From contig CAWFCE010000002.1 in NCBI GenBank assembly GCA_963814275.1, positions 702,919 through 766,918 of the forward strand: 64,000 nt of DNA, given 5' to 3'. The DNA comes from Candidatus Parcubacteria bacterium (lineage in GTDB: Bacteria > Patescibacteriota > Patescibacteriia > Patescibacteriales > UBA12075). Both the position numbers and the translations under genes were made by a program. This document shows positions 28,204 through 59,197 of this stretch, one piece after another; position 1 is the first letter of the stretch; each line of letters opens with the position of its first letter. Under the pieces are notes generated by a model. That model made no database searches. It was not told the DNA's origin and was given only the letters and a program-made list of their open reading frames with translations.

Positions 28204-29304
28204 ATGGAGAATAGGATAATGCGCAGGATTTCCGACATGCATTGCGATTTCCGCATGCCGTATGATTGCTGGCGCCAGATGGATTACAATTTCGCGACAC
28301 GCCAGCAGTACAGGGAGCCGGCTTTCGATAATTGGCATATGATGCTGGCGCGCGCCTGGCAATTCGGGGTCAGGCCCGCCTCCGCCGGCCTGGACCCCGA
28401 TAATGACGACATTTCGGAAGACCGGTATGACCGTGTGATGAGCGAGGTAGTGGCGCGGTATTACCGTATCGCCTTTTGTTCGATCTATTTCGACTGGCAG
28501 GCTTTCGATAGCCGCCGCCAGCGGATGGACTTCATCCGCCACACGGTCGGGCGCTACCGTTCCTGGAATCTGCCGATCCTCGCTCCTGGTGTGCCGCTCG
28601 GGGATGAGGGCACGGCCCTGGTCCTGGTCCTGGAAGGCAGCGGGATCGTCAGGGGAATGGAAGACGTTTGTTTTCTGGCTGAAGCGGGTATCCGCGTCCT
28701 GGTGCCGCAGTATGGACACGAGCCAAAAGCCAAGGTCAAAAACGAGTTGGCCGACGGGATGGGATTGACTCCGATGGGCAATGTAATGATACACGAACTG
28801 CTGGAGCGGGGAGTGGTGATCGACCTGGCGCATGCCCTGCCCTATACCCGCGGCGATATCCTGGCCCTGGCCGAGTATGGCGGCTTTACCGGGCAGGTGA
28901 TCTATTCCCATGGATCATTCGGAGAGGATATGGCCGCGGCCGGCGCCAGCGAACAACAGGCGCGCGAACGCGGCATCTCGCGTGATGTGGCGAAGCGGAT
29001 CATCGATCTGGGCGGTATGATCGGCCTGAGCGTTTCCCGGCCGTTTTTTGCCGGCGTCGACGCGGTCGTCAACCGGATCATCGCGATCTGCGTGCTGGCC
29101 GGCAACTACCGGCAAGTGGCGATCGGCTCCGACTTCGGCGGCGTTTCCCCGAGCTATCTCATCGGCATCGACAACATCTATGATTTCGACAAGCTGGCAG
29201 AGGCGCTCCGGGAACGCGGTCTGGATGAAGAAGCGGTCCGCGGGATCACCTGCGACAACGCGGCTGTCTGGCTCGATTCCATTTCAACGCAGTTCATTTT
29301 ATGA
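28204..29304 (+). CDS. Zn-dependent dipeptidase-like protein (peptidase M19 / amidohydrolase fold)
   Basis: N-terminal DMHCDF (H-x-D), DLAHALPYTRGDILAL...SHGS, IGSDFGGV (cf. M19 lGtDfdG). Confidence 0.5.
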   Translation: MENRIMRRISDMHCDFRMPYDCWRQMDYNFATRQQYREPAFDNWHMMLARAWQFGVRPASAGLDPDNDDISEDRYDRVMSEVVARYYRIAFCSIYFDWQAFDSRRQRMDFIRHTVGRYRSWNLPILAPGVPLGDEGTALVLVLEGSGIVRGMEDVCFLAEAGIRVLVPQYGHEPKAKVKNELADGMGLTPMGNVMIHELLERGVVIDLAHALPYTRGDILALAEYGGFTGQVIYSHGSFGEDMAAAGASEQQARERGISRDVAKRIIDLGGMIGLSVSRPFFAGVDAVVNRIIAICVLAGNYRQVAIGSDFGGVSPSYLIGIDNIYDFDKLAEALRERGLDEEAVRGITCDNAAVWLDSISTQFIL

Positions 29305-29387
29305 CACAAAAGAATGCCCAAGCGCGAATTAAGCACTTGGGCATTTTATTTTCGTATTATTATATGCTAATAATGACAGATCGCTAC

Positions 29388-29752
29388 CATTGTCATTGCA
29401 AGCCTCGCACGCTACGGCGCGAATCGGTCCCGAGGCGTTTTTTAACCTGTCATTGCGAGCGACAGAAATAATTATTATCTGAACGCAGGCCGGAAAAACA
29501 TCAAGAACTCATTTTTACGAACCTGAAGTCGCGAAGCAATCCCGAGGCGCGCGGAACCAGCCCTTTTTACCTTTCTTTTATAAACGTTTTGTGTATTGTG
29601 GCACGGGATTGCTTCGCGACTCCATGATCGAAAAATATACCAGTCAGGTTTTTATCGCAGTTGCAAGAAGCTAATATTTATTTCTGTCGCTCGCAATGAC
29701 AGATTAATTAAGATTGCTTCGCCCCGCAGTGTGCGAGGCTCGCAATGACTGT
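29388..29752. repeat. GC-rich nested-palindrome element, family C copy 1 (~365 bp)
   Basis: Modules tgtcattgcaagcctcgcac..., tgtcattgcgagcgacagaaa, gaagtcgcgaagcaatcccgaggcg, then their reverse complements ggcacgggattgcttcgcgactcc, tctgtcgctcgcaatgaca, gattgcttcgccccgcagtgtgcgaggctcgcaatgac in mirror order. Confidence 0.7.
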
Positions 29753-29849
29753 ATATTAACAATACTGCAGATAATGTTCGTTATGCCAGATAAAGAAAAG
29801 CCGTTTCCCCGGAGGGAAACGGCAATTTTGATTCAGGGTATTTAGCGCC

Positions 29850-30158
29850 CTAGTTATACATTATACCCCTGACCTCCAGGCATTCCAGGCCCGGTTTGGG
29901 GGTGTCCAGTGACCTTTTCTCTCCATTCCGGAGCCAATAGTACCAACCGTCGTACTGCTCGCTGTTGGCGAAAAAAAGCATTTCTGCCGGCTGGCCGTCC
30001 ATGCCGAGCCTTTTTTTGATCGGTTGGATGATGCGCATATTCCGACAAAGTTTTCCCTCGGCTATGATAGTGACCGGCATAGCGGCTTCGCCATTCTCGC
30101 CGAATGTGTTCAGGAAATAACCGATCATTTTGCCGGAAAGGGTATGAGTGAACCGCAT
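29850..30158 (-). CDS. Hypothetical protein (102 aa)
   Basis: AGGAGG RBS upstream on the minus strand (rc of ccctcctt at ~30166). Confidence 0.5.
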   Translation of the reverse strand: MRFTHTLSGKMIGYFLNTFGENGEAAMPVTIIAEGKLCRNMRIIQPIKKRLGMDGQPAEMLFFANSEQYDGWYYWLRNGEKRSLDTPKPGLECLEVRGIMYN

Positions 30159-30243
30159 GACTAATTCCCTCCTTTCATGTGTTTTGGTTTTCGATACCTA
30201 AAAATTAGCTCAAGGGGAAGAAAATGTCAATGCGGAACGAGTT

Positions 30244-30425
30244 GTAAAGTTATAAAGTTTGTAAAGTTATAAAGTTTTTAAAGTTTGTAAAGTTGAAAGT
30301 TATAAAGTTTTTAAAGTTTGTAAAGTTGAAAGTTATAAAGTTTTTAAAGTTTGTAAAGTTGAAAGTTATAAAGTTTTTAAAGTTTGTAAAGTTGAAAGTT
30401 ATAATGTTATAAAGTTTTTTAAGGT
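30244..30425. repeat. 33-bp tandem repeat x~5 (aagtttttaaagtttgtaaagttgaaagttata) in a divergent promoter region
   Basis: Direct reading of perfect and near-perfect 33-bp units. Confidence 0.85.
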
Positions 30426-30469
30426 TATTAGTGGGGTATTTACAAAATGGTGGTTTTGTTGTATATTAT

Positions 30470-30520
30470 CACGCAGCACAATATACTTAATACTAAATAC
30501 TAAATACTTAATACTAAAAA
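30470..30520. repeat. Family D repeat copy 2
   Basis: cacgcagcacaatatacttaatactaaatactaaatacttaatactaaaaa. Confidence 0.5.
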
Positions 30521-30564
30521 GGGTTCTTTCAAACAACTATTTTTTAAAAAAGGGGAGGGAAATA

Positions 30565-30945
30565 ATGAAAAAACATTGGTTGATTTTCGGCGTTATGGTG
30601 CTGCTCTTGTTTCAATTCTCCGGCCGGGCGGTTTTTGGCGGGGAAAACGGTCTGTTGTCCCGGCAGAAAGAGGCGATGAAGAGAAATATAACGGCGTTCT
30701 ACTATTACGGTTACAATGATTATGATTGCTATGTAGAGCTTGATAATCTGCGCAGTGATATTGAGGCGGGCGCGTTTTTCAGCAAGAATTATCAGACCCT
30801 TAAGGATTTCAAGGATAACGAACCGGAGCGGTTCGGCAATTTTATGGGAGTGCTGGAAATTGCCTGCCGCATCGGCCATATGGACCTGGAGCAAAAGCAG
30901 CAGCGCCTGCCGCTTTTGCTCTATGAGATAGAAAATACGCAATAG
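30565..30945 (+). CDS. Small secreted hypothetical protein
   Basis: GGGAGGG RBS, signal peptide MKKHWLIFGVMVLLLFQFSGRAVFG. Confidence 0.5.
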   Translation: MKKHWLIFGVMVLLLFQFSGRAVFGGENGLLSRQKEAMKRNITAFYYYGYNDYDCYVELDNLRSDIEAGAFFSKNYQTLKDFKDNEPERFGNFMGVLEIACRIGHMDLEQKQQRLPLLLYEIENTQ

Positions 30946-30947
30946 AT

Positions 30948-31003
30948 TTACGGGGAAAATCCCCGTAAAAAGCGCCAGTACATAAATACTGGCGCTTTTT
31001 TAT
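30948..31003 (+). terminator. Tandem hairpins / rho-independent terminator
   Basis: tacggggaaaatccccgta and aagcgccagtacataaatactggcgctttttt. Confidence 0.6.
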
Positions 31004-31077
31004 TTCTGTGAAAATGATAATTTAATAATCCATTAACCTGAATAATATATACTTTTAAATATAATAATTCGATTAAT

Positions 31078-31689
31078 ATGGAAAAATATACTTTACCCAA
31101 ATTAAAATACGGCTATGGCGATCTGGAGCCTTATATCTCTGAAGAAATAATGACACTTCACCACAGCAAGCACCACCAGGCCTATGTCAACGGCGCCAAC
31201 GCGGTGGTCGAGAGACTCAGGAAGGCGCGGGAGGCCGGCGCGGAAGTCGATATGAAAAGCGAATTGAAGACCCTGTCCTTCAACCTGAACGGCCATCTGC
31301 TCCATTCCCGGTTCTGGGATATATTGGGGCCGGCCAAGGACGTGGCCAAATTGCCGTCCGGCAAGCTAAAGGAGGATATGGATGCGGCCTTCGGCGGCTG
31401 GGAGCGCTTCATGAAAGAATTCACCCAGGCCGCCATGAGCGTCGAGGGCTCGGGCTGGGCGGCCTTGGTCTACCACCCCGTAAGCGGGTTGCTCATCATG
31501 CAGATCGAGAAGCACAATGCCAATTGCTATGCCGGACACGAGATACTGATGCTCGTCGATGTCTGGGAGCACGCCTACTACCTTGACTACAAGAACGACC
31601 GGGGGAAGTATCTGGAGGGTTTTTGGAATGTGGTGGACTGGGAGGAAGTGGGGAAGAATTATGGCAATATTAAGAAGAAATATATTTAA
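31078..31689 (+). CDS. Superoxide dismutase, Fe/Mn family
   Basis: HHSKHHQAYV, DVWEHAYYLDY signature. Confidence 0.92.
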   Translation: MEKYTLPKLKYGYGDLEPYISEEIMTLHHSKHHQAYVNGANAVVERLRKAREAGAEVDMKSELKTLSFNLNGHLLHSRFWDILGPAKDVAKLPSGKLKEDMDAAFGGWERFMKEFTQAAMSVEGSGWAALVYHPVSGLLIMQIEKHNANCYAGHEILMLVDVWEHAYYLDYKNDRGKYLEGFWNVVDWEEVGKNYGNIKKKYI

Positions 31690-31692
31690 TTT

Positions 31693-31870
31693 ACAATAAT
31701 CCAATAATCCAATTTTCAATTAATATTTAATATCTAATTTTTAATTTTCAAACCAGTCTATTTTAATATTTGATATTGAAAATTAAATATTGTTTGGATT
31801 ATTGGATTATTGAAAATTGGATTATTCAGACTGGATTATTGAAAATTATTGCGTTGATTATTCTTAATAA
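31693..31870. repeat. Family B palindromic element copy 1 (caataatccaataatcc arms; centre tattttaatatttgatattgaaaattaaatatt)
   Basis: Imperfect inverted arms ~35 bp; copies also at 32500-32640 and 63378-63545. Confidence 0.65.
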
Positions 31871-31895
31871 TAAAAATAAATATAGCAATTAACCT

Positions 31896-32459
31896 ATGTT
31901 ATCCATCAACGATCCCATTCCCGAGATGGAACTCGAAGCCTATGTACCGGACAAATTCGAAAAGATCAAACTCTCGGACTACCTGGGCCAATGGCTCGTC
32001 ATATTGTTCTACCCGGCCGATTTCACATTTGTCTGTCCTACCGAGCTGGAAGACGCCGCCAGCCACGAAAAGGAGTTCGCCGAAGAGGGCGCCGCAATCG
32101 TCAGCGTCAGTGCGGATACCGCCTTTGTCCATAAGGCCTGGCATGACCACTCGGAGTCGATCCGCCAGATCAATTATCCGATGATCGCCGACCCGACCGG
32201 CAAGCTGTGCGAGGCATTCGGCACCTATCTTCCGGGCGAGGGATTGTCGCTCCGGGCCACCTTTATCGTCGATCCGGACGGCCTGGTCAAATCGCTCGAG
32301 CTCCACGACAACAGCATCGGCCGCAATATCACCGAGATCCTGCGCAAACTGCGCGCCGCCAAATTCGTCCGCGAACACCCGGGCCTGGCCTGCCCCGCCA
32401 ACTGGCAGCCGGGGAATAAAAGCTTAAAACCCGGTGTTGAGCTGGTTGGTAAAATATGA
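31896..32459 (+). CDS. Peroxiredoxin (AhpC/TSA family)
   Basis: Peroxidatic Cys motif FTFVCPTE, thioredoxin fold length. Confidence 0.9.
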   Translation: MLSINDPIPEMELEAYVPDKFEKIKLSDYLGQWLVILFYPADFTFVCPTELEDAASHEKEFAEEGAAIVSVSADTAFVHKAWHDHSESIRQINYPMIADPTGKLCEAFGTYLPGEGLSLRATFIVDPDGLVKSLELHDNSIGRNITEILRKLRAAKFVREHPGLACPANWQPGNKSLKPGVELVGKI

Positions 32460-32499
32460 TTGAATGTTATTATTATTTAGCCTGAATGACCAAAATTTA

Positions 32500-32640
32500 G
32501 TTACTCAATTTTCAATAATCCAATAATCCAAACAATATTTAATATCTAATACTTAATTTTCAATCCGGCCTATTTTAATATTTGATATTGAAAATTAAAT
32601 ATTGATTGAGTCACTGGATTATTGGATTATTGATAATTTA
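32500..32640. repeat. Family B palindromic element copy 2
   Basis: caataatccaataatccaaacaatatttaat ... attaaatattgattgagtcactggattattggattattg. Confidence 0.65.
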
Positions 32641-32651
32641 AATAAAAAGTT

Positions 32652-33038
32652 ATGTTCAAAGTACAACATTTCGAAATACCCGCCGCAGATGTGGAGCGGG
32701 CGAAAAAATTCTATGAGGAGGTGATGGGCTGGCGGGTCTCAGCGATGCCGGCGGCAGATATGGAGTATTGGGGCGTCTACACGACCGAGATTGACGACCA
32801 GCGCATGCCCAAAGAGGCGGGCGCGATCAACGGCGGCCTTTATAAGAAGATGCGGGAAAACGAGGTATTGACGGTCTACGCGACGGTGGATTCGATCGAT
32901 GACGTAGTGCAAAAGGTCACCGCCCACGGCGGCCGGGTGATCCAGCCCAAAACCACGGTAGGGGATATGGGCTTCTCCGCCCGCATCGCCGACCCGGAAG
33001 GGAATGTGGTGGGGATATGGGAAATGATGAAAAAATGA
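32652..33038 (+). CDS. VOC/glyoxalase-bleomycin resistance family protein
   Basis: N-terminal HFEIPAADVERAKKFYEEVMGW beta-alpha-beta-beta-beta module, 128 aa. Confidence 0.75.
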   Translation: MFKVQHFEIPAADVERAKKFYEEVMGWRVSAMPAADMEYWGVYTTEIDDQRMPKEAGAINGGLYKKMRENEVLTVYATVDSIDDVVQKVTAHGGRVIQPKTTVGDMGFSARIADPEGNVVGIWEMMKK

Positions 33039-33149
33039 TTTAAGACAGGGAAAAAGCGCCCGGCTTTCTTTGTTTGTTATACACGAAACCTTAAATATTG
33101 ACCGTTTGTCCGCGGAATTAACGCGGACCCTACGCGGATTTTACGCTGA

Positions 33150-33760
33150 AAATAATAATCCGCTATAAACGTTTAGTGTAATGTGGCACGGGATTGCTTC
33201 GCCCCGCAGTGTGTGGGGCTCGCAATGACAGGTTGATTAGGATTGCTTCGTCCCGCAGCGTTTTTATATACTGTCATTGCGAGCGACAGAAAAGATTATT
33301 ATATACGGATAATATTTGGATGAAGATATAAGCAGTTGTTTGAACGTATGTGAAGTCGCGAAGCAATCCCGAAGCGTTTTTTTTCTGTCATTGCGAGCGA
33401 CAGAAATAAATTATGGTTTATGAACCGATTTTGATAAAGTACTATGAAGTTGCTTCCGTGTACGAGAAGTCGCGAAGCAATCCCGAGGCGCGAGGAACCA
33501 GCCCTTTTTACCTCTCTTTTATAAACGCTTAGTGATTTGTGGCACGGGATTGCTTCGCGACTCCATGACCGAAAAATATACCAGTCAGATTTTTATCGCA
33601 GTTCCGATAAGCTAATATGTATTTGCGGTCGCTCGCAATGACAGGTTAATACGGGATTGCTTCGCCCCGCAGTGTGCGGGGCTCGCAATGACAGATTAAA
33701 TTGGATTGCTTCGCTCCCCAGCGTACAGGGCTCGCTGGTACTGTAAAAATGTAATGCTAC
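33150..33760. repeat. GC-rich nested-palindrome element, family C copy 2 (expanded, ~610 bp)
   Basis: Multiple copies of tgtcattgcgagcgacagaaa, gaagtcgcgaagcaatcccgaggcg, ggcacgggattgcttcgc[gactcc/cccgcagtgtgcggggctcgcaatgaca]; ~85-90% identical to 35470-35890 over ~420 bp. Confidence 0.7.
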
Positions 33761-33812
33761 TTTAAAATTATCCGGTATTCGCGATGGAAAAATTTTCTGA
33801 TATAATTGTTGT

Positions 33813-34145
33813 ATGAAGGACTATGTCTATTTCACATATATCGCCACGAATTTTCCCCGTTGTACCGTTTTATACACCGGAATAACCAGCGACCCTTACG
33901 GCCGTGAATGGGAACACCAGAACAAGGAATTTCCCGACAGCTTTTCCGCGCGTTACAATATTAACCGCATTGTTTATTTTGAATATTATGACGATGTGAA
34001 TGTCGCGATCAAAAGAGAGAAGGCGATTAAAGGAAGTTCGAGAAAGAAAAAAATGAAATTGATCGAGTCGATCAATCCGGATTGGTCTGATTTGGTTGAA
34101 AAAATGCGAAATGAGGAAAACGTGGTTGGCAATACGCGCGATTGA
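33813..34145 (+). CDS. GIY-YIG nuclease superfamily protein (small COG2827/UPF0213-type)
   Basis: YVYFTYIATN...LYTGITSDPYGREWEHQN...YFEYYDDVNVAIKREKAIKGSSRKKK pattern. Confidence 0.7.
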   Translation: MKDYVYFTYIATNFPRCTVLYTGITSDPYGREWEHQNKEFPDSFSARYNINRIVYFEYYDDVNVAIKREKAIKGSSRKKKMKLIESINPDWSDLVEKMRNEENVVGNTRD

Positions 34146-34346
34146 AGTGAATCATGATAATCCGGATAAATAATCACGGCCCCACCATTCCGCCATTCCA
34201 GTCTTGAATTGTAGAGAATAAGTGTGTTATAATAATCCTATAAATCATATTAATGGAATTACGCTATATTGCGTAATTTTTTTTAATTACAGAGTTTCAG
34301 CCAGCTGGCTGATCCGCCTTTGGAGGAAATTCTGTAATTCCATATT

Positions 34347-34529
34347 ATGGCCAGATTAAGCCTTGAAAACAGGAATATTAGGAAATTGTGCAAGGTCGGG
34401 GGATGGAAGACCTACTCCGTAACCCTGCCGATCGAAGCGATCAGGGAGCTGGGCTGGCAGAAGAAGCAGAAAGTGGTCGTGGAGACCGATTTGAAGAATA
34501 AGCGTTTAACGATTAAGGACTGGAAATAG
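34347..34529 (+). CDS. Small AbrB/SpoVT-like (looped-hinge helix) DNA-binding / antitoxin-like protein, 60 aa
   Basis: KVGGWKTYSVTLPIEAIRELGW resembles the swapped-hairpin motif. Confidence 0.35.
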   Translation: MARLSLENRNIRKLCKVGGWKTYSVTLPIEAIRELGWQKKQKVVVETDLKNKRLTIKDWK

Positions 34530-34533
34530 ACCT

Positions 34534-35393
34534 ATGCCGGCAGCCTATCCTCGGTTATTCCATATTGGCACGCAGAAGGCCGGCTCGACCTATCTGTACA
34601 ATATTCTTGCGCAGCATCCTGATTTGTCGTTGCCAAAGATCAAAGAACCGGCGTATTTTACCACGAATTACGAACGCGGACTGGAATGGTATTCGGGGTT
34701 GTTCGAAGGAGAGGGGATCCGCCTTGATACCACCCCCAAATATTTCCAGTTGGGGGAGAAAGCAGCGCCGCGGATCAAAGAGTATGCCGACAGACATCTG
34801 GCCGAACCGCCCCGCTTCCTCCTGATCCTGCGCAATCCGGTCGATTACCTCAATTCTCATTTCGAAATGCAGAAATACCACGGTTTTTCCGGAATAACCC
34901 CGGGGATTACCCGGAACCGATGGATAAGCTCATTGACCACCTTAGGCGCTACCCCAAGTACCTGGAGCGCGCCCGCTACGCCAAGATTTTGAGGAGCCAT
35001 TGGCTCAGCCGCTGGCCGCTCGAAAATTTTCTGATAGTTTATTTCGAGGATTTCATCGCTGATCCGAATGGAACTGCCAACCGGATCTGCCGTTTTTTCG
35101 GGGTCAGCGAGCATGAGTTCAACACCGCCAATCAAGTGAGCCGCAACAAAATGCTGAGGAATGACTGGCTCTTCCGTCTCCAGTCCTGGACAGTGAAAAG
35201 GGAAGGGATCAAAAATGTTTTGAAGAAAAGCCGCTTGTTCAATTATGCTTATAAGAATGTCCTGACCGGGAAATCAGGCAGTAAATTACCGCCGGGAGAC
35301 CGCCGGGAGATCGCCGCCATGCTCAAGCCCGATGTTGCCGAATTGGAGGTATTGCTAGGCAAGAAGATAGAGGTTTGGCCCGATTTCAAATAA
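34534..35393 (+). pseudogene. Sulfotransferase-family gene interrupted by a frameshift at a C4G4 run (~34905-34920)
   Basis: N-terminal PAPS 5'-phosphosulfate-binding motif GTQKAGSTYL in the 34534 frame. C-terminal sulfotransferase part (FLIVYFEDFIADPNGTANRICRFFGV) in the 34920 frame; junction at taaccccggggatt. Confidence 0.6.
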
Positions 35394-35424
35394 TTTCACC
35401 CTGGCGACTTTTTTTGTCATTTCG

Positions 35425-35895
35425 AACCACCACCTTTCTGTCATTGCGAATCCCGAAGCGTTTTTTACATTGTCATTGCGAGCGACAGAAAAAACTATTA
35501 TCTACGGATATATATGGATGAAGATTTAAGCAGTTGCTTCCGCATACGAGAAGTCGCAAACCAGTCCCGAGGCGTTTTTTACATTGTCATTGCGAGCGAC
35601 AGAAATAAATTATGGTTTATGAACCGATTTTGATAAAGTACTATGAAGTTGCATCCGCATACGAGAAGTCGCGAAGCAATCCCGAGGCGCGAGGAACTAG
35701 CCTTTTTTAACCGCTTCGTAATCAACGCTTAGTGATTTGTGGCACGGGATTGCTTCGCGACTCCATGATCGAGAATAAAACCAATCAGATCGTTATCGCA
35801 ATTACCAGAAGCTAATATGTATTTGCGGTCGCTCGCAATGACAGATTAATTAGGATTGCTTCGCCCCGCAGCGCGCTGGGCTCGCAACGACAGGA
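35425..35895. repeat. GC-rich nested-palindrome element, family C copy 3; direct repeat of copy 2
   Basis: Same module order and orientation as 33290-33700. Confidence 0.7.
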
Positions 35896-35914
35896 TATTA
35901 TTAACAATAAATAT

Positions 35915-36451
35915 ATGATCAACAAAAAATCCATCATTATTTTCACCGCAATAATTATCTTGGCGGCTGCTTCCCGTTTAATAAACCATCCCTACAATTT
36001 CACCCCGCTCGGAGCGATGGCGCTTTTTGCCGGCGCGTATGGACTGAAAAAGAGCTGGGTAATCCTGCCGCTGGCCGCCCTCCTGATCGGCGACTATTTT
36101 ATCGGATTTTATGCCTGGCCGGTGATGGCCGCAGTTTACGGTTCCTTCGCCCTGGCCTTCGTCATTGGCTGGCAGATGAGGAAGCGGGCAAAATGGCAGA
36201 ACATAGCCGCCGCCTCGCTGGTTTCTTCCCTAGCTTTTTTCCTCATCACCAATTTCGCCGTCTGGGCATTCGCCAGCTGGTACCCGCACACCCTCGCCGG
36301 CCTGTTGAATTGTTTTACTCTCGCCATCCCGTTTTTCCGCAATACTCTCCTGGGTGACCTGGTTTACAGCGGAGCGCTGTTCGGAGGATATGAGCTGGTT
36401 AGTTATTTCGTTGTAAATAGTAAAACAAAATTTGCATCACGCAACATGTAA
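35915..36451 (+). CDS. Small polytopic membrane protein, possibly ECF-transporter S-component-like
   Basis: 178 aa, 5-6 TM helices; precedes a DUF4430 lipoprotein gene. Confidence 0.45.
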   Translation: MINKKSIIIFTAIIILAAASRLINHPYNFTPLGAMALFAGAYGLKKSWVILPLAALLIGDYFIGFYAWPVMAAVYGSFALAFVIGWQMRKRAKWQNIAAASLVSSLAFFLITNFAVWAFASWYPHTLAGLLNCFTLAIPFFRNTLLGDLVYSGALFGGYELVSYFVVNSKTKFASRNM

Positions 36452-36505
36452 CATATAGCACGCAACAAATTATACTTAATACTAAATACTTAATACTATT
36501 AAGCC
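36432..36505. repeat. Family D repeat copy 3 (overlaps stop of the 35915 gene)
   Basis: gcatcacgcaacatgtaacatatagcacgcaacaaattatacttaatactaaatacttaatactatt. Confidence 0.5.
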
Positions 36506-52368: not shown

Positions 52369-54780
52369 ATGAAAAAATTATTTTGGACAATTATATTTTT
52401 ATTTATATTTTGTCTTGCTTCCTGGTTCTGCCCCAGGATAGCTTATGCAGGAAATGATATAAAAACCATAAATATTTATGCCGAAAGAAGCGATACTAGT
52501 TTTTCTAATTATAAGGTTGGTAACTTTGTTACATGGAATAAAATAAGAAACGATGCATATGGATATAGGGTAAACGATAATTTTGAATATGTTCATATGC
52601 GAATACGGGGCAAAGGTGGGGCAATTAATTCTAATAGATTTATGGATTTACAAAGAATTGGGTTAAGTTTTGATACAAGCATTCTCGGAGATAATGTACA
52701 GCTTGAAAGCGTCAAGCTGTACATATTTGGGGCGTCAACAACCATTGACAAGCTAGGCATGAGTTCTGTTGACAGAGAAGTTTCGTTGGTTGATTTTTAT
52801 CCCAGTTCTTCAGTAAAATATACGATTTATGATTATAATAAATTTGGCACTGAAAAGTTAGCAGACAATATCGATCCTGGTGAAAATTTTTCTTTATGGA
52901 AATATAACGAATATAATGTATTTGACATGTATCAGTCAGTTTTTAACAGAATTGATAAAACAGGGTTTACAAATTTAGGATTAAGGTTTGAGTGTGATCG
53001 TGTTAACCATGAACCGTCTTTTGAAAATACACAAGATCAAAACGCATTATTGTATATGTATTTCAGGGACTCGAGAAATCAAAATTTTTGGCCCTATTTA
53101 GAAGTAAGCTATTCCGTTCCAGATGATAATGAAGAATTAAATCCGGTAGTTGTTGTGCCCGGCATTGGGGGGAGTTGGGAGAAAGACCGGGAGTGGGTGA
53201 TTGATCCGATCTTGCATACCTATGATTATCTTCTGGAGGCATTCGAGGCAGCCGGGTATGTGCCGGGAGAGACATTGTTCACTATGCCCTATGACTGGCG
53301 CAACGACAACCGCTACAGCGCGATCCAGCTCCGGGAGGCGATCGAGGCGGCCAAAGGGGACGCGGGCGGGAAAGTCGATATTGTCGCCCATAGCATGGGC
53401 GGACTGGTGGCCCGGTCCTATATCGAGAGCGACAACTACCGGGATGATGTCGATCAGCTGATCTTTCTCGACACCCCGCAAGCCGGGGCGCCCGAGAGCT
53501 ACTTGGCTTATGAAGGGGCGTATCTGCCCGGAATGATCGGCGCGATCAAGAAATTCTATTTCGAGGTCGAGGGGAAGCTGCATGGCTATGACAGCTTGCC
53601 GGAATATTTTCGGGAAAAGGTAATCGGCCTGGGCCAGCTTCTGCCTGATTACAGCTATTTGTATGATAATACGGGTAATGAGTGGCAGCTCCGCGCGTAT
53701 CCGGATAACTACCCCCGGAATGTATTCCTGGAAGATCTCAATTTGGCGGGAAATATCGACAAACTGCTCATGCGGAGCAATACCTATAATATCTACAGCT
53801 ATGCCGGGGTCATTGATACGGATGATACAACTATGACGGGTTTCCGGGTCGAATTGCCCAAGAAAAATGATCCCGATTGGCTGCATGGCTATCCGGTTAA
53901 TTTGTCGTCTGCCAAAGACGGGGTGATGATGGGCGCGGGCGACGGCACGGTGCCGCTGGAGAGCCTTGTAGCCCTGCCAATGGCGGACAGCAAAATCGTC
54001 GCTTCGGCCGGACACCGCGAGATCGTCACCCAGGCCCAGCAGGAGGTGATCGAAGCCCTGACCGGCGAGCGTCCGGATGATTTCGTGTCCGGCCCTCTGG
54101 CCAGGATCAAGCGGCTCTTATTCGTGCGCGTCTATTCGCCGGTTGATCTTCTGGTCACCACCCCAGCCGGCGAGCGCCTGGGCTACGACGCGGCCACCGG
54201 CGCGGACATCTTCGAGCCCTTCGGCAGCTTCTATAGCGGGCACAGCGCCGCGGCCGAATTCGCCACCTGGCCGGTGCCTGCGGAGGGTACTTATCAAGTG
54301 GCCCTGACCGGCACGGCGGACGGTTATTACCGGTTGGGGTTCGATGTGCTTACGGATGCGGCGGAGGAAGCCGCAGAGCCGGCCATTTACGGCATTATCC
54401 GGAACGGTGAAAGCAAAAATTACGCATATACTTTGACACCAGACAGCGCCGGACAGACGGAAATTAATCTGAATACGGAAATTAGCCCGAACGATTTTGC
54501 CCGGGATATCGAAGCGATCAACGGCCTGGGCGGCTTCTCGCGCAAAGCAGTCTACAACTATCTCCGGGCGCAGGCGAAGATTATCGGCAAAGAGTGGGAC
54601 AAGCTTGATTCCGGCAGCAAACGCGCCCGACCGTTATTGTCGCTCATCGCCAAAGGCCATCTGCTGGTACTCGAAAAATTACTGGATTTTTATCTTAACA
54701 AGCAATGGATAACGCCGGAGGGGCATGGAGTGTTGCACGGGGATATTGGATGGCTGAGAATTACGTTAGCTGGAAAATAG
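52369..54780 (+). CDS. Secreted LCAT-like / lipase-class alpha/beta hydrolase (803 aa)
   Basis: Signal peptide. VVVPGIGGSW...YDWRNDN...VDIVAHSMGGLVARSY (GxSxG nucleophile elbow). Paralogous to the 56621 gene. Confidence 0.65.
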   Translation: MKKLFWTIIFLFIFCLASWFCPRIAYAGNDIKTINIYAERSDTSFSNYKVGNFVTWNKIRNDAYGYRVNDNFEYVHMRIRGKGGAINSNRFMDLQRIGLSFDTSILGDNVQLESVKLYIFGASTTIDKLGMSSVDREVSLVDFYPSSSVKYTIYDYNKFGTEKLADNIDPGENFSLWKYNEYNVFDMYQSVFNRIDKTGFTNLGLRFECDRVNHEPSFENTQDQNALLYMYFRDSRNQNFWPYLEVSYSVPDDNEELNPVVVVPGIGGSWEKDREWVIDPILHTYDYLLEAFEAAGYVPGETLFTMPYDWRNDNRYSAIQLREAIEAAKGDAGGKVDIVAHSMGGLVARSYIESDNYRDDVDQLIFLDTPQAGAPESYLAYEGAYLPGMIGAIKKFYFEVEGKLHGYDSLPEYFREKVIGLGQLLPDYSYLYDNTGNEWQLRAYPDNYPRNVFLEDLNLAGNIDKLLMRSNTYNIYSYAGVIDTDDTTMTGFRVELPKKNDPDWLHGYPVNLSSAKDGVMMGAGDGTVPLESLVALPMADSKIVASAGHREIVTQAQQEVIEALTGERPDDFVSGPLARIKRLLFVRVYSPVDLLVTTPAGERLGYDAATGADIFEPFGSFYSGHSAAAEFATWPVPAEGTYQVALTGTADGYYRLGFDVLTDAAEEAAEPAIYGIIRNGESKNYAYTLTPDSAGQTEINLNTEISPNDFARDIEAINGLGGFSRKAVYNYLRAQAKIIGKEWDKLDSGSKRARPLLSLIAKGHLLVLEKLLDFYLNKQWITPEGHGVLHGDIGWLRITLAGK

Positions 54781-54787
54781 CGATTTA

Positions 54788-56190
54788 TGTGGTTTAGCCG
54801 TGTATTATAGATTTCTCACTGCGCCGCGGCTCCGTTCGAAATGACAGAAAAGAGAGGATTCGAAATGACAGAAAAGAGAGGATTCGAAATGGCAGAAAAG
54901 AGAGGATTCGAAATGGCAGAAAAGAGAGGATTCGAAATGGCAGAAAAGAGAGGATTCGAAATGGCAGAAAAGAGAGGATTCGAAATGGCAGAAAAGAGAG
55001 GATTCGAAATGGCAGAAAAGAGAGGATTCGAAATGGCAGAAAAAAGGGAAGTTCTGCAGGGATGAAAGTAGCATGGTGGTGTCGGAAAACATGAAATGAT
55101 ACGGCCACATTCGTACTCGACGAACCGCCCATCTTTTTCAATTCGACGACCCCCCCTTCTGTCATCTCGATCCGCCGACGAGGCGGAGAGAGATCTATAA
55201 TACGTGGGTTGCGCAACAAGCAGTCTTTGTGGTTTAGCCGTGTATTATAGATTTCTCACTGCGCTCCGCTCCGTTCGAAATGACAAAAAAGAGAGGATTC
55301 GAAATGACAGAAAAGAGAGGATTCGAAATGACAGAAAAGAGAGGATTCGAAATGACAGAAAAGAGAGGATTCGAAATGACAGAAAAGAGAGGATTCGAAA
55401 TGACAGAAAAGAGAGGATTCGAAATGACAGAAAAAAGGGAAGTTCTGCAGGGATGAAAGTAGCATGGTGGTGTCGGAAAACATGAAATGATACGGCCACA
55501 TTCGTACTCGACGAACCGCCCATCTTTTTCAATTCGACGACCCCCCTTCTGTCATCTCGAGGCCGCAGCCGAGAGATCTATAATACGCGGATAACGCAGG
55601 CGGACGGGTTTGTGGGTGAGCGGAGTATTATAGATTTCTCACTGCGCTCCGCTCCGTTCGAAATGACAGAAAAAAGGGGAGGTTCGAAATGACAGAAAAG
55701 AGAGGATTCGAAATGACAGAAAAGAGAGGATTCGAAATGACAGAAAAGAGAGGATTCGAAATGACAGAAAAGAGAGGATTCGAAATGACAGAAAAGAGAG
55801 GATTCGAAATGACAGAAAAGAGAGGATTCGAAATGACAGAAAAAAGGGAAGTTCTGCAGGGATGAAAGTAGCATGGTGGTGTCGGAAAACATGAAATGAT
55901 ACGGCCACATTCGTACTCGACGAACCGCCCATCTTTTTCAATTCGACGACCCCCCTTCTGTCATCTCGATCCGCCGACGAGGCGGAGAGAGATCTATAAT
56001 ACGTGGGTTGCGCAACAAGCAGTCTTTGTGGTTTAGCCGTGTATTATAGATTTCTCACTGCGCTCCGCTCCGTTCGAAATGACAGAAAAGAGAGGATTCG
56101 AAATGACAGAAAAGAGAGGATTCGAAATGACAGAAAAGAGAGGATTCGAAATGACAGAAAAAAGGGGAGGTTCGAAATGACAGAAAAAAA
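54788..56190. repeat. Higher-order tandem array: ~390-440 bp super-unit x3.5, each holding 4-9 perfect copies of a 24-bp unit (ttcgaaatgacagaaaagagagga), a conserved ~140-bp tail and a ~60-bp header
   Basis: Headers tgtggtttagccgtgtattatagatttctcactgcgc at ~54788, 55227, (variant) 55618 and 56026. Tails ...agggaagttctgcagggatgaaagtagcatggtggtgtcggaaaacatgaaatgatacggccacattcgtactcgacgaaccgcccatctttttcaattcgacgaccccccttctgtcatctcga. No unique spacers. Confidence 0.9.
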
Positions 56191-56208
56191 GTTAAAGTAG
56201 TTAAATAA

Positions 56209-56610
56209 ATGAGAAAATATCATAACTTTGATACCCAAAAATATCGTTTCGATGTTTATATTTTGAGTAATTATGATCGTATAGTTTTCTATGTCGGCTA
56301 CACGAACAGTCTTGCCCGCCGCATAATTGAGCATCGGCTGGGTATCGGCAGTAAATTTACTGCCAAATATAAATGTTTTTATCCGGTTTTTTATGAAAGC
56401 TATCAATATGTATATGACGCGATAAGCCGGGAAAAAGAAATGAAAAAGTGGAGAAGAGCGAAAAAATTGAAATTGATCGAAGAAAATAATCCACAGTTTG
56501 TTGATTTGAGCAGAAATATATTCGAAGAGTTTGATTTGGATAATAAAGCGGTCAAGTCAGTCGCGACAGAATTATCGCTTAGAGCAGGAAAACAAACAGA
56601 TTATAAATAA
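56209..56610 (+). CDS. GIY-YIG nuclease superfamily protein (COG2827/UPF0213-type)
   Basis: RFDVYILSNYDRIVFYVGYTNSLARRIIEHRLG...AKY...PVFYESY...AISREKEMKKWRRAKKLKLIE. Confidence 0.75.
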   Translation: MRKYHNFDTQKYRFDVYILSNYDRIVFYVGYTNSLARRIIEHRLGIGSKFTAKYKCFYPVFYESYQYVYDAISREKEMKKWRRAKKLKLIEENNPQFVDLSRNIFEEFDLDNKAVKSVATELSLRAGKQTDYK

Positions 56611-56620
56611 TATCAATACT

Positions 56621-59197
56621 ATGCGCAAGATTATCATTTCGATTTTTATCATCGGCGCGTTGTTATTGCCGATTACGTTTAGCGCCAACCGGATAGCAGT
56701 CAGGATCGGAGAGACGGCCACCCAGCCGAGCCTGTATATCGATACCGAAGTGATCTGGACCGCGGAAGACAGTCCGTATGTGATCGGCAGCTACCCGAAT
56801 GCTTCACTCTATATCGCCCCGGGCGGGTCTTTGTTCATCGAGCCGGGCGTGGCGGTCATGATGTATGACGGGGCCAGTATCCGGGTGGACGGGGAATTGT
56901 TCCTGAATGGCGGGCCCGATAACCCGGTAATTATTACGTCTCATTGGGACGATGCCGATGAGGGCGCCGGTCCGGACGGGCGGGAGCCGGCGCCGGGAGA
57001 CTGGCAGGGGATTTACGTGGAGGATGACGGCTATCTCAGCCTGGAGAACACGGCTATCCGCTACGGCGGTTATCAGACCTATTTGTATGACCGGGCGACA
57101 GACGGCTATTGGATAGGGAACCGCGCCCGGGCCCAGGAGGATAACGGGCGCGCAGTCGGCGCGATCAATATGGTCGGCGAGGGGAACATAGAGATTGAAG
57201 ACTCGGTAATTACCGGAAATACGATCGGCCTGTGGATCGCCGCCGCCGCCGTCGGCGAGGAAGACAAGGAAATCACGATCAGCGGCAGCGAAATATGGGG
57301 CAATACGGCCGCGGGGATAATAAACGACACCGAATATGTGATAAATGCGGAAGAGAACTGGTGGGGCGACAATTCCGGACCCTACCACGAGACTGGTAAC
57401 CCGGCAGGCTTGGGGGAGAGGCTGGTCGGACCGGTCGATTTCGACAATTGGCTGACGCGCGAAAATGGCGGGGACGAAGAGAGCGGTCCGTATCCGGTGA
57501 TCATAGTCCCGGGGATCGGCGCTTCGGTCAACCTGGACCTGATGATCGGGGGCATTTTCAACGATAACTGGAAGATGTTCGACCATACCTACGACGGGAT
57601 CATCGAGGCCTTCAAAGCGATGGGATATGAAGAGGATATAGACCTGTACATCTGCTACTATGACTGGCGGCAGGACAATGCCGTCTCGGCCGCGGAATTC
57701 CTGAAGCCGCTCATCGACCGGGCTCTGGCGGCCAGCGGCTCGTCCAAGGTGAACATAGTCGCCCATAGCATGGGCGGCCTGGTGGCCCGGAGCTATATCC
57801 AGGGCGATAATTACGGAAATGACGTGGATAATCTGTTCCTGATCGGCACGCCTAACCACGGCTCATCAGACATCTATCCGGTCTGGGAGGGCGGTTATGT
57901 GCCGAAGAATTGGGATCACCGTGTAATTATGAATGCCTATATTAACTTATTGAAGGTTAAAGGTTGGAGTAAATCCAGTTATGAAACTGTTCACCATTAT
58001 ATTCCTTCTGTAAAACAACTCCTGCCTGTTTATAGCTATATCCATCCCGTAAATGATCCGGAAAACATTTTGAATTATGTTGATATGACCGTACTCAATA
58101 ATTTTCTGCTTGATCTAAACAGTGATATTCCAACGCTTAATGACCGGGCGAAAGTCAGCGTCATCTCCGGCAATGGCCAGGATACGGTCAATATGGTCCC
58201 GGTGATTGAAGCCAGCGAAGAAGCGCCGCTTTGGATGGATGGTAAACCCGTACCGCTTGATCCGGCAAAAAACGATACGGCCGGCGACGGCCGGGTATTG
58301 CTATCCTCATCGGAGATCCAGAGCTATTTCGCCCAGACCCTCTCCGGCAGCCACGGCGCGATCGTCAGCCTGGCCGAGCCGCTAATCGCGACAGAATTGA
58401 ATAAGTATCTGGATATCATGTACCCGGCGCCGGTAATCAATTCGGAGATGCTGGTCTGGGTCGCCTCGCCGGTGGATATTGAGATCAATGACCCGGTTGG
58501 TAAAACGATTTCCTCGTCTATAAACGATATACCGCTGGCCCGATACACTTCGGAGTCGAAGCCGGACGGGGTCAAGCTCATTTCCATCCCCAATCCGGTG
58601 GCCGGAAAATATGAGATTCATCTGACCGGCAACGGCGCGGGCGAATACCATCTCGGCCTGGAATACGCCGATTATACCGGCAGCAAAGAAGACTATTCCG
58701 CCCTGGTCCAGGGCGAGGTCGCGCCGGGTGAAACCAGGGAATACGCGGTTGCCTATGATCCGCAGGCGGAAAGCCCGGTAGGCGGTATTGAATCCGGCGG
58801 TATTACCATCGACAGTACCATCGCCGATATTGATCGACTTTATGAAACGGGCGAGATATCGAAAGAAGCAGCCAGGGATAATCTGGTAAAATCGCTGGAA
58901 TGGATAAAAAGATATGAAGAAAAATACGGCGAAAGGCTGGAGTTACGCGATAAAGTAGCGGACCAGATCATGGACAAATGTTCTGACAAGAGAAGCGACA
59001 AGTGGTGCGCCGGACATATCGGGAAAAAGATCGGCCAGGTAATATACATATTAGACGGTCTGCACGCGATGATAGTGAAGGTGAAATATAATTTGTTGCT
59101 AGCCCAGCTCAAATCTTATTACCGGAAAAACTGGGTAAGCGCGCCGGCTTATGGTATAATTAAGGAAGATATTGAATATTTAATTGATAATTTATGA
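56621..59197 (+). CDS. Secreted protein with N-terminal parallel beta-helix repeats and an LCAT-like alpha/beta hydrolase domain (paralogue of the 52369 gene)
   Basis: Likely start MRKIIISIFIIGALLLPITFSA (signal peptide). NTIGLWIAA...GNTAAGIIND beta-helix-like repeats. VIIVPGIGAS...YDWRQDN...VNIVAHSMGGLVARSY. Confidence 0.65.
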   Translation: MRKIIISIFIIGALLLPITFSANRIAVRIGETATQPSLYIDTEVIWTAEDSPYVIGSYPNASLYIAPGGSLFIEPGVAVMMYDGASIRVDGELFLNGGPDNPVIITSHWDDADEGAGPDGREPAPGDWQGIYVEDDGYLSLENTAIRYGGYQTYLYDRATDGYWIGNRARAQEDNGRAVGAINMVGEGNIEIEDSVITGNTIGLWIAAAAVGEEDKEITISGSEIWGNTAAGIINDTEYVINAEENWWGDNSGPYHETGNPAGLGERLVGPVDFDNWLTRENGGDEESGPYPVIIVPGIGASVNLDLMIGGIFNDNWKMFDHTYDGIIEAFKAMGYEEDIDLYICYYDWRQDNAVSAAEFLKPLIDRALAASGSSKVNIVAHSMGGLVARSYIQGDNYGNDVDNLFLIGTPNHGSSDIYPVWEGGYVPKNWDHRVIMNAYINLLKVKGWSKSSYETVHHYIPSVKQLLPVYSYIHPVNDPENILNYVDMTVLNNFLLDLNSDIPTLNDRAKVSVISGNGQDTVNMVPVIEASEEAPLWMDGKPVPLDPAKNDTAGDGRVLLSSSEIQSYFAQTLSGSHGAIVSLAEPLIATELNKYLDIMYPAPVINSEMLVWVASPVDIEINDPVGKTISSSINDIPLARYTSESKPDGVKLISIPNPVAGKYEIHLTGNGAGEYHLGLEYADYTGSKEDYSALVQGEVAPGETREYAVAYDPQAESPVGGIESGGITIDSTIADIDRLYETGEISKEAARDNLVKSLEWIKRYEEKYGERLELRDKVADQIMDKCSDKRSDKWCAGHIGKKIGQVIYILDGLHAMIVKVKYNLLLAQLKSYYRKNWVSAPAYGIIKEDIEYLIDNL

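Follow-up and report, generated by a model that had tools for sequence, protein, structure and literature searches.

Mosaics of hairpin repeats beside small GIY-YIG nuclease genes, probably of the Ssn/SRM kind

Three mosaics of hairpin units

A 64,000-nucleotide (nt) stretch of contig CAWFCE010000002.1, deposited as Candidatus Parcubacteria bacterium and hereafter called the window, holds three copies of a repeat element, Family C, and the second copy is followed by a gene for a small GIY-YIG nuclease. The copies lie at ~29392-29773, ~33160-33745 and ~35413-35915 in a common orientation. Local alignment gave 89.5% identity between copies 2 and 3 (438 columns; 33251-33694 against 35451-35893), 87.7% between copies 1 and 2 (326 columns) and 83.6% between copies 1 and 3 (342 columns), in agreement with an earlier sequence-only reading of the window, which had described three same-orientation copies, two of them ~85-90% identical. 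The modular, nested-palindrome build proposed in that reading was also confirmed. With up to two mismatches allowed, the box GTCATTGCGAGC occurs 25 times in the window against 4.8 expected, a count reached by none of 100 shuffles, and CGAAGCAATCCCG occurs 13 times against 2.5 expected, again unmatched by any shuffle; both boxes are found in both orientations. Folded as single-stranded DNA (ssDNA), the three copies stand apart from dinucleotide shuffles with z = -14.0, -7.3 and -4.2. Other parts of the description needed correction: the central stem, thought to be ~20 base pairs (bp) and perfect, is paired at 18-19 of 20 bp around a loop of 59 nt, close to the ~60 nt proposed, and GC richness is a property of the boxes only, whole elements having 43-46% GC against a window mean of 46%. 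The inter-box stretches of the left half show no complementarity to those of the right half, so the palindrome is confined to the boxes. All repeat units in the window are intergenic. Translation of the repeats yields spurious open reading frames (ORFs) reading CHCE.../...LLRPAVCGARND.

In each unit, a (C/T)GTC head that stays unpaired leads into a 5-bp stem, ATTGC...GCAAT, which encloses a small internal loop (GAG/GAA) and a variable, often self-complementary inner part; an unpaired C follows. Short units span 38 nt and have an inner hairpin of 7-8 bp. Three of them on the minus strand (33655-33692, 33192-33229 and 29712-29749) leave GTC and C unpaired on folding, as does the NTS hairpin of Neisseria. 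Long, or split, units measure 93-96 nt, with the head GTCATTGCGAGCGAC and the tail GTCGCGAAGCAATC ~65 nt apart. In a test of the inner stem, 31% of 150 distinct inner segments beat shuffles for self-complementarity, and many units contain GAGCGAAGCGAC-like inserts that the RNA energy model leaves unfolded. The heptamer GCGAAGC is a stable DNA mini-hairpin.

In copy 1, a plus short unit and a plus long unit are followed by a spacer of ~60 nt, a minus long unit and a minus short unit, and this arrangement of plus units to the left and minus units to the right of the spacer creates the nested palindrome. The outer left short unit (29392-29432, plus) reads GTCATTGCAAG...CGAATCGGTC CCG and has a decayed tail. 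The long unit at 29449-29541 (plus), with head, ~65-nt loop and tail as above, is separated by the central spacer (29542-29606) from the inverted long unit (29607-29700, minus) in a tail-to-tail arrangement, and the outer right short unit, GTCATTGCGAGCCTCGCACACTGCGGGGCGAAGCAATC, occupies 29712-29749 on the minus strand, with likeness to copy 3 extending to ~29773. The central spacer holds the position that the nuclease gene holds in gene-bearing elements elsewhere. Separately, the interior of copy 1 was considered as a decayed GIY-YIG ORF, because its 360-nt length matches that of gene-bearing elements, and this was rejected, tblastn giving no sign of such an ORF there.

Copies 2 and 3 have the plus long unit tandemly duplicated (114 nt). 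In copy 2, the two long units (33273-33368 and 33387-33482, plus) precede the central spacer (33483-33547), the inverted long unit (33548-33642, minus), the minus short unit at 33655-33692, with its NTS-like fold that leaves the GTC head and 3' C unpaired, and a decayed short unit (33704-33741, minus). Copy 2 bears additional minus units at both ends. The extra block on its left (33160-33260, minus) comprises a stretch resembling a spacer, together with the short unit at 33192-33229 and a truncated one (33241-33260), and has the look of the right half after a deletion from one box to another. The left edge of copy 3 (35416-35459, plus) combines one half unit of another type, the GTCATTTCGAA type (35416-35436), with a collapsed GTCATTGCGA/ATCCCG unit (35440-35459). 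It is followed by two plus long units (35472-35566, with a decayed tail, and 35586-35681), the central spacer (35682-35747), the inverted long unit (35748-35842, minus) and a short unit with a decayed head, GTCGTTGCGAG (35854-35891, minus), beyond which likeness to copy 1 extends to ~35915.

Box-to-box recombination has clearly reshaped the mosaics: the long unit duplicated in tandem (114 nt), the unit collapsed at 35440-35459 and the block at 33160-33260 that resembles a deletion product all show it. The non-box interior is common to all three mosaics (84-90% identity) and their flanks differ, which argues that the mosaics were copied as wholes. A search of metagenome contigs for the central pattern of Family C, a plus half, a spacer and a minus half, returned ten loci, all simple inverted pairs from other organisms and none of them Family C, and a Family C-specific 28-mer had no match in viral contigs.

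Small GIY-YIG genes and their linkage to the repeats

The gene at 33813-34145 (plus; ssnA-like gene 1) encodes a 110-amino-acid (aa) single-domain GIY-YIG nuclease that we propose as the cognate enzyme of the GTCATTGC-type units. Its product matches the Pfam GIY-YIG domain over residues 6-81 (E = 1e-8) and has no other domain; homologues are 90-110 aa long, and their invariant columns include R31, H35, E69 and N88. A tblastn search of the window located a second gene (ssnA-like gene 2; 56209-56610, plus), a 133-aa ORF with a GIY-YIG domain at residues 16-87 and 39% identity to gene 1, directly 3' of a second repeat cluster. Both proteins align over their full length with a GIY-YIG ORF of Neisseria gonorrhoeae that sits amid 13 NTS repeats, gene 1 at 38% identity (E = 7e-17) and gene 2 at 44% (E = 3e-25). 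This ORF lies on a 2.17-Mb molecule in an N. gonorrhoeae record from the plasmid collection (L107), which was found by its match to the window protein. The family profile scores 97.5 bits on the Neisseria ORF and 35 bits on the UPF0213 protein BH0048, the closest solved structure (1ZG2). No NCBIfam model matches the GIY-YIG protein or the AbrB-like and sulfotransferase proteins encoded after it. With GC contents of 41% (gene 1) and 34% (gene 2) against 51-57% in their neighbours, both ssnA genes are, by this measure, foreign in composition.

The second repeat cluster (54810-56181, minus; 1.4 kb) contains four hairpin units, GTCATTTCGAAC...GAGAAATC, and 2-8 tandem copies of a 24-nt half site, CTGTCATTTCGAATCCTCTCTTTT, precede each of them. 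The units are of the GTCATTTCGAA type (GTCATTTCGAACGGAGCGGAGCGCAGTGAGAAATC), with the stem ATTTC, unlike the ATTGC of Family C. The cluster is flanked by paralogous LCAT/lipase-like genes (52369-54780 and ~56620-59197), and the minus-strand ORFs across it (54794-55219, 55578-55910 and 56044-56406) have no Pfam match and are probably spurious. On this layout, a nuclease sits beside its own repeat type twice in the window, in two pairs within 23 kb, with the short GTCATTGC unit as the proposed cognate of gene 1 and the GTCATTTC unit as that of gene 2. The upstream clusters end 72 nt (gene 1, at the decayed short unit) and 28 nt (gene 2) before the start codons. Relatives of the gene 2 protein are flanked by units of the ATTCT/AGAAT type. 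Upstream of one such relative (L105, 2200-2900) there is an 800-nt array of another palindromic repeat, GCCGGGCATTCCTGCCCGGC, with AT-rich spacers and a period of ~45-60 nt, unrelated to the GTCATT units.

Whether gene and repeat are linked was assessed in 80 loci from species-representative genomes, fetched with the family profile (homologues 47-56% identical) and drawn from Bacteroidota, Chloroflexota, Patescibacteria, Cyanobacteriota, Pseudomonadota, Bacillota, WOR-3, Elusimicrobiota and others. This showed GTCATTNC within 300 nt of the gene in 57 of the 80 loci, at 4.5 boxes per kb close to the gene compared with 0.26 per kb farther off, a 17-fold difference (210 boxes observed, ~12 expected), so the earlier suggestion that the nearby GIY-YIG gene is relevant to the repeats is borne out. 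The commonest layout, present in 23 loci, is a plus unit, 10-40 nt, the ORF and a minus unit, with a median span of 402 bp, and in ten loci GATTGCTTC abuts the stop codon. Independent loci found initially by protein look-ups (Daviesbacteria, Ignavibacteriae and two further lineages) have a GTCATTGCGA box beside the gene and nearly nowhere else within 8 kb, and they repeat the layout of unit, gene and inverted unit. In one Anaerolineaceae locus (L027, 2880-3420), a near-duplicate of the ~65 nt that precede the unit-ssnA-unit module, which form the 3' end of the upstream gene, also follows the module; this suggests insertion between tandem paralogues or a target duplication.

The stems covary across these loci. 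Counts of the stem pairs were 168 for ATTGC/GCAAT, 26 for ATTCT/AGAAT, 16 for ATTCC/GGAAT and 10 for ATTTC/GAAAT, and both variable stem positions form Watson-Crick pairs in 226 of 358 units, compared with 105 expected if head and tail were independent. Despite this covariation, the GTC head and the C tail are fixed. Units also occur away from the gene: GC-type units (GTCATTGCGAG...CGAAGCAATC) are present in at least 120 predicted viral contigs from IMG/VR (loci from L108 onwards), with an Ssn-like protein in one of the 120 fetched stretches, and gene-less inverted pairs with 50-60-nt spacers are present in other organisms.

Competing explanations and a proposed mechanism

Copies 2 and 3 had been likened in the sequence-only reading to terminal direct repeats of an inserted or excisable 1.6-kb cassette holding a GIY-YIG gene, an AbrB-like gene and a frameshifted sulfotransferase. 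The gene content was confirmed. Besides the GIY-YIG gene, a split sulfotransferase is present (34534-35393, plus; ORFs 34534-34992 and 34920-35393), and the frameshift amounts to one T: the gene reads as two ORFs because of a T5 homopolymer at ~34884, where a sister contig, L001, has T6 (~1735) and an intact 286-aa ORF, the sequences being otherwise 100% identical across the gene. With ssnA the situation is reversed, the gene being intact in the window and interrupted in L001, and either or both of these disruptions may be sequencing errors. The 60-aa MazE/AbrB-like ORF (34347-34529, plus) scores 21.9 bits, below the Pfam cut-off of 24.7, and is a neighbour with nothing tying it to the repeat system. 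The cassette idea itself draws on direct repeats of ~440 nt and 89.5% identity that bracket three genes, on the deletion of the segment that recombination between copies 2 and 3 could cause, and on L001, where the same arrangement is found around copies and genes. However, copy 1 is solitary and does not bracket such genes with another copy, the outer ends lack a visible target-site duplication, and elsewhere single units enclose the GIY-YIG homologues within tens of nt, in spans of ~400 bp without cargo. The GC contents of the genes also differ (ssnA 41%, AbrB-like 48%, sulfotransferase 51%), and the sulfotransferase matches the downstream DUF6580 and DUF4430 genes (51-52%). Its best homologues (44-52% identity) lie in glycosyltransferase/methyltransferase/sulfotransferase clusters with no GIY-YIG gene within 5 kb, and the genes downstream of the window locus are of the same classes as the neighbours of these homologues. 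Judged by composition and context, the sulfotransferase is a host glycan-cluster gene and not cargo. We therefore regard a mobile cassette as very improbable; copies 2 and 3 enclose one ssnA gene and ordinary host genes.

L001 is 98.5-100% identical to the window from ssnA onwards and 90.6% identical across copy 2, where the 9.4% difference (L001 1-600 against window 33160-33745) is made up of 41 mismatches and 14 gap positions, and a 27-nt patch of its copy 2 is identical to window copy 3. The end of this contig coincides exactly with the left edge of copy 2, and the divergence could reflect either gene conversion from one copy to another or a mosaic produced in assembly at the end of the contig. 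In another record (L101, 6090-6270), an inverted pair, GTCATTCCGGA...TCCGGAATC, with an ATTCC stem lies ~240 nt 3' of the closest sulfotransferase homologue (52%), with no ssnA within 5 kb; such hairpin repeats may recur beside surface-glycan clusters.

Two further explanations were weighed. If each element were a large structured non-coding RNA, as the sequence-only reading had offered as an alternative, or a set of RNA hairpins serving as terminators or mRNA stabilisers, as proposed for classical repetitive extragenic palindromes (REPs), the strong predicted folds would be expected, several plus units are indeed followed by GCGTTTTTT, resembling an intrinsic terminator, and the elements lie downstream of plus-strand genes. 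An RNA role nevertheless deserves very little credence: Rfam 15 gave no match in the whole window at the gathering threshold, nor inside the elements at E <= 1 (in 29300-36000 the weak matches at that level fall only at a terminator near 30960), and a terminator scan calls none inside the elements, the upstream genes having terminator-like hairpins of their own, e.g. at 29313-29345. Units occur in both orientations with conserved boxes and variable loops, and their unpaired GTC head and C tail fit an ssDNA nuclease without RNA binding, such as the characterised Ssn enzyme (PMC11893778). The elements might instead be MITEs (miniature inverted-repeat transposable elements) moved by a conventional transposase encoded elsewhere, of an insertion sequence (IS) or the IS200/IS605-type Y1 kind, with the GIY-YIG gene as bystander or passenger. 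Inverted ends around a short interior look MITE-like, as do the gene-less inverted pairs of other organisms with their 50-60-nt spacers; at one related locus (L002), a Y1_Tnp fragment lies 3.3 kb away from the GIY-YIG gene; and GC-type units are common without a nearby ssnA, as the single Ssn-like protein among the 120 fetched viral stretches illustrates, a distribution compatible with either MITEs or a REP-like population. Set against this, no Y1_Tnp or other transposase domain was found in the genes adjoining the window clusters (M19 peptidase, glyoxalase, GIY-YIG, sulfotransferase, DUF6580 and lipase-like), the rest of the window not having been scanned for Y1_Tnp. Moreover, target-site duplications are not seen, it is the GIY-YIG gene itself to which the repeats are linked across phyla, and a survey of CGTC-tagged REPs found no associated transposase (PMC3733652), which together make conventional MITEs an improbable account.

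We consider it probable, with good confidence, that the Family C elements are mosaics of SRM, or CGTC/TGTC-tagged REP, hairpins comparable to bacterial interspersed mosaic elements (BIMEs), that the adjacent GIY-YIG gene encodes an Ssn-family nuclease and that the genes between the copies form no cassette. The family had been called unrecognised, and a match can now be named at the level of kind, to SRM and CGTC(TGTC)-tagged REPs (PMC11893778, PMC3733652). Several observations weigh against this assignment. The published SRM search string, HGTCWYN(0-2)YYVSBRHN(0-5)WNVSBRGN(0-2)RNCYNB, built from 29 genomes (PMC11893778), matches neither window repeat type and does find the NTS control; its one match in the window (53244-53274) falls outside the repeat clusters. 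As the string is a search aid and not a definition, we read the window units as variants that it does not capture. The cognate units of the window stand solely upstream of each ssnA gene, in minus orientation, and not on both sides, with no unit within 300 nt downstream of either gene. The long units, with ~65-nt loops, have marginal predicted stability (z = -2.2 and -0.8) and are putative sites, while the GTCATTTCGAA-type unit beyond its 5-bp outer stem folds no better than shuffles (z = 0.28). A nuclease alone does not explain the copying of whole mosaics, and Ssn has no known biological role outside Neisseria (PMC11893778).

A mechanism can be proposed by analogy with SsnA of N. meningitidis, which binds its hairpin, NTS (CGTCATTCCCGCGMAVGCGGGAATCYRG), solely as ssDNA and solely on that strand, and cuts just upstream; cleavage depends most on the three nt before the palindrome and binding most on the C after it (PMC11893778). 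A folded unit would arise in the window whenever the DNA becomes single-stranded, in uptake, replication or repair. By homology with SsnA, the nuclease would bind the folded unit in ssDNA only, on the strand reading GTCATT...AATC, and would cut a few nt 5' of the hairpin, the putative target of the 33813-34145 protein being a single strand that carries CTGTCATTGCGAGCCCCGCACACTGCGGGGCGAAGCAATCCCG. A mosaic, having plus units to the left and minus units to the right, would present sites on both strands. Trimming of incoming or exposed single strands might then modulate recombination around the flanked genes. In Neisseria, trimming lowers the integration of incoming DNA that has NTS repeats around a gene (PMC11893778), and a comparable effect on the genes flanked here is possible by analogy. 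The mosaics may spread as whole units, through an Ssn-dependent process or through recombination.

A bolder version of the last step, which we hold to be unlikely though worth stating, is that the mosaics and the ~400-bp unit-gene-unit modules are active mobile DNA, copied via ssDNA intermediates by Ssn itself. Ssn-driven mobility is compatible with the data because the interiors are 84-90% identical in different flanks, the ssnA genes are foreign in composition and L001 contains the 27-nt patch of copy 3. If it were true, Ssn/SRM would be the first case in bacteria of a DNA transposon or homing system run by a stand-alone GIY-YIG domain, and pairing at a distance would rebuild functional sites from the split long units and the 24-nt half-site arrays.

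Other repeats are also present in the window. Either side of a peroxiredoxin gene there are AT-rich imperfect palindromes of ~110-130 nt (AATAATCCAATAATCCAA...TTGGATTATTGGATTATT) at 31688-31830 and 32487-32658, which are 84% identical to each other, belong to a different repeat family and have no GTCATT box. At 30230-30435, 5' of an ORF at 30565-30945, lies a tandem array with a 33-nt period (AAAGTTATAAAGTTTTTAAAGTTTGTAAAGTTG, three exact and further decayed copies), and the motif CACGCA.CA...TATACTTAATACTAAATACT is found upstream of two plus-strand genes, at 30467-30522 and 36456-36502.

Significance and relation to known systems

Assignment to this kind explains a conspicuous repeat class that breaks metagenome assemblies and yields spurious ORFs. 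It adds two cognate nuclease/site pairs, with the stems ATTGC and ATTTC, that the published SRM string misses, so the reach of the Ssn system is probably underestimated, and each new pair is a candidate sequence-specific ssDNA cutter, a use proposed for the family. The clusters border a surface-glycan gene cluster and a paralogous lipase-like pair, which echoes the clustering of NTS around Neisseria surface genes, and the locus makes it possible to study, in a small genome, whether recombination at variable loci is limited by Ssn/SRM or the repeats spread selfishly. The local novelty is modest: two stem variants, two pairs within 23 kb, split units, mosaics copied whole and half-site arrays.

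Among other systems, IS200/IS605 elements are similar in being compact and in having ends that are hairpins recognised in ssDNA. They differ in enzyme family and in having ends that are not inverted copies, and Ssn elements are not known to transpose. The likeness to REP/BIME/REPIN sequences and their RAYT proteins is closer in layout, comprising palindromic repeats with a conserved unpaired head, inverted pairs, mosaic clusters and a single-copy gene that is flanked by its own repeats and encodes an enzyme acting on ssDNA hairpins. Unlike RAYT, a Y1 HUH tyrosine transposase, the window enzyme is a GIY-YIG hydrolytic nuclease, a chemistry that implies no covalent intermediate and no known strand transfer, and the head is (C/T)GTC in place of GTAG.

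The CGTC-tagged REP superfamily (Di Nocera, De Gregorio, Rocco, BMC Genomics 2013) includes dRS3 of Neisseria and RPE-4 and RPE-6 of Rickettsia (PMC3733652). Its members have an unpaired four-base tag, CGTC or else CCTC or TGTC, of which the TGTC variants are common, A-T as the first two stem pairs and a short unpaired tail, and they form inverted dimers, and large clusters in some genera (PMC3733652). The window units correspond in their CTGTC/TTGTC head followed by ATT...AAT and C(CC), and in being multi-copy and intergenic. In place of the 8-9-bp stems and 4-5-nt loops of four CGTC-tagged families, however, they have a 5-bp outer stem, an internal loop and a variable inner hairpin, and their dimers are tail to tail around a spacer, unlike the head-to-head dimers that predominate there.

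Repeats formerly catalogued as CGTC-tagged REPs (PMC3733652) are now SRM (PMC11893778), and it is with the Ssn/SRM system (Chenal et al., Nat Commun 2025) that the window invites the closest comparison. Its stems ATTGC and ATTTC fall outside the published search string, many of its units are split by ~65-nt loops, whole mosaics of 360-580 nt are repeated as units, one unit type forms 24-nt half-site arrays, and two paralogue/repeat pairs lie within 23 kb, all unlike the published cases. The host, too, as best hits and a contig of 1.27 Mb suggest, is probably a small-genome, Patescibacteria-like organism and not a proteobacterium. The Ssn system is said to comprise a vast number of enzyme/site pairs (PMC11893778). 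SsnA of N. meningitidis is a 94-aa single-domain GIY-YIG protein (CDD cd10448; PMC11893778), and the window proteins are likewise small and single-domain (110 aa and, for the second ORF, 133 aa) in a family of ~95-110 aa. In both, the repeats are oriented hairpins whose head is GTC, whose stem runs ATT...AAT and whose tail is C; they cluster beside the gene and in intergenic DNA, and the window units keep the critical GTC before and C after the palindrome. A degenerate SRM motif placed at least one repeat at 71% of homologue loci, and repeats on both sides at 42% (PMC11893778); the share of loci with a repeat is ~71% in both data sets (57/80 here). The authors of that study liken the NTS-ssnA-NTS arrangement to an insertion sequence and to REP/RAYT/BIME (PMC11893778).

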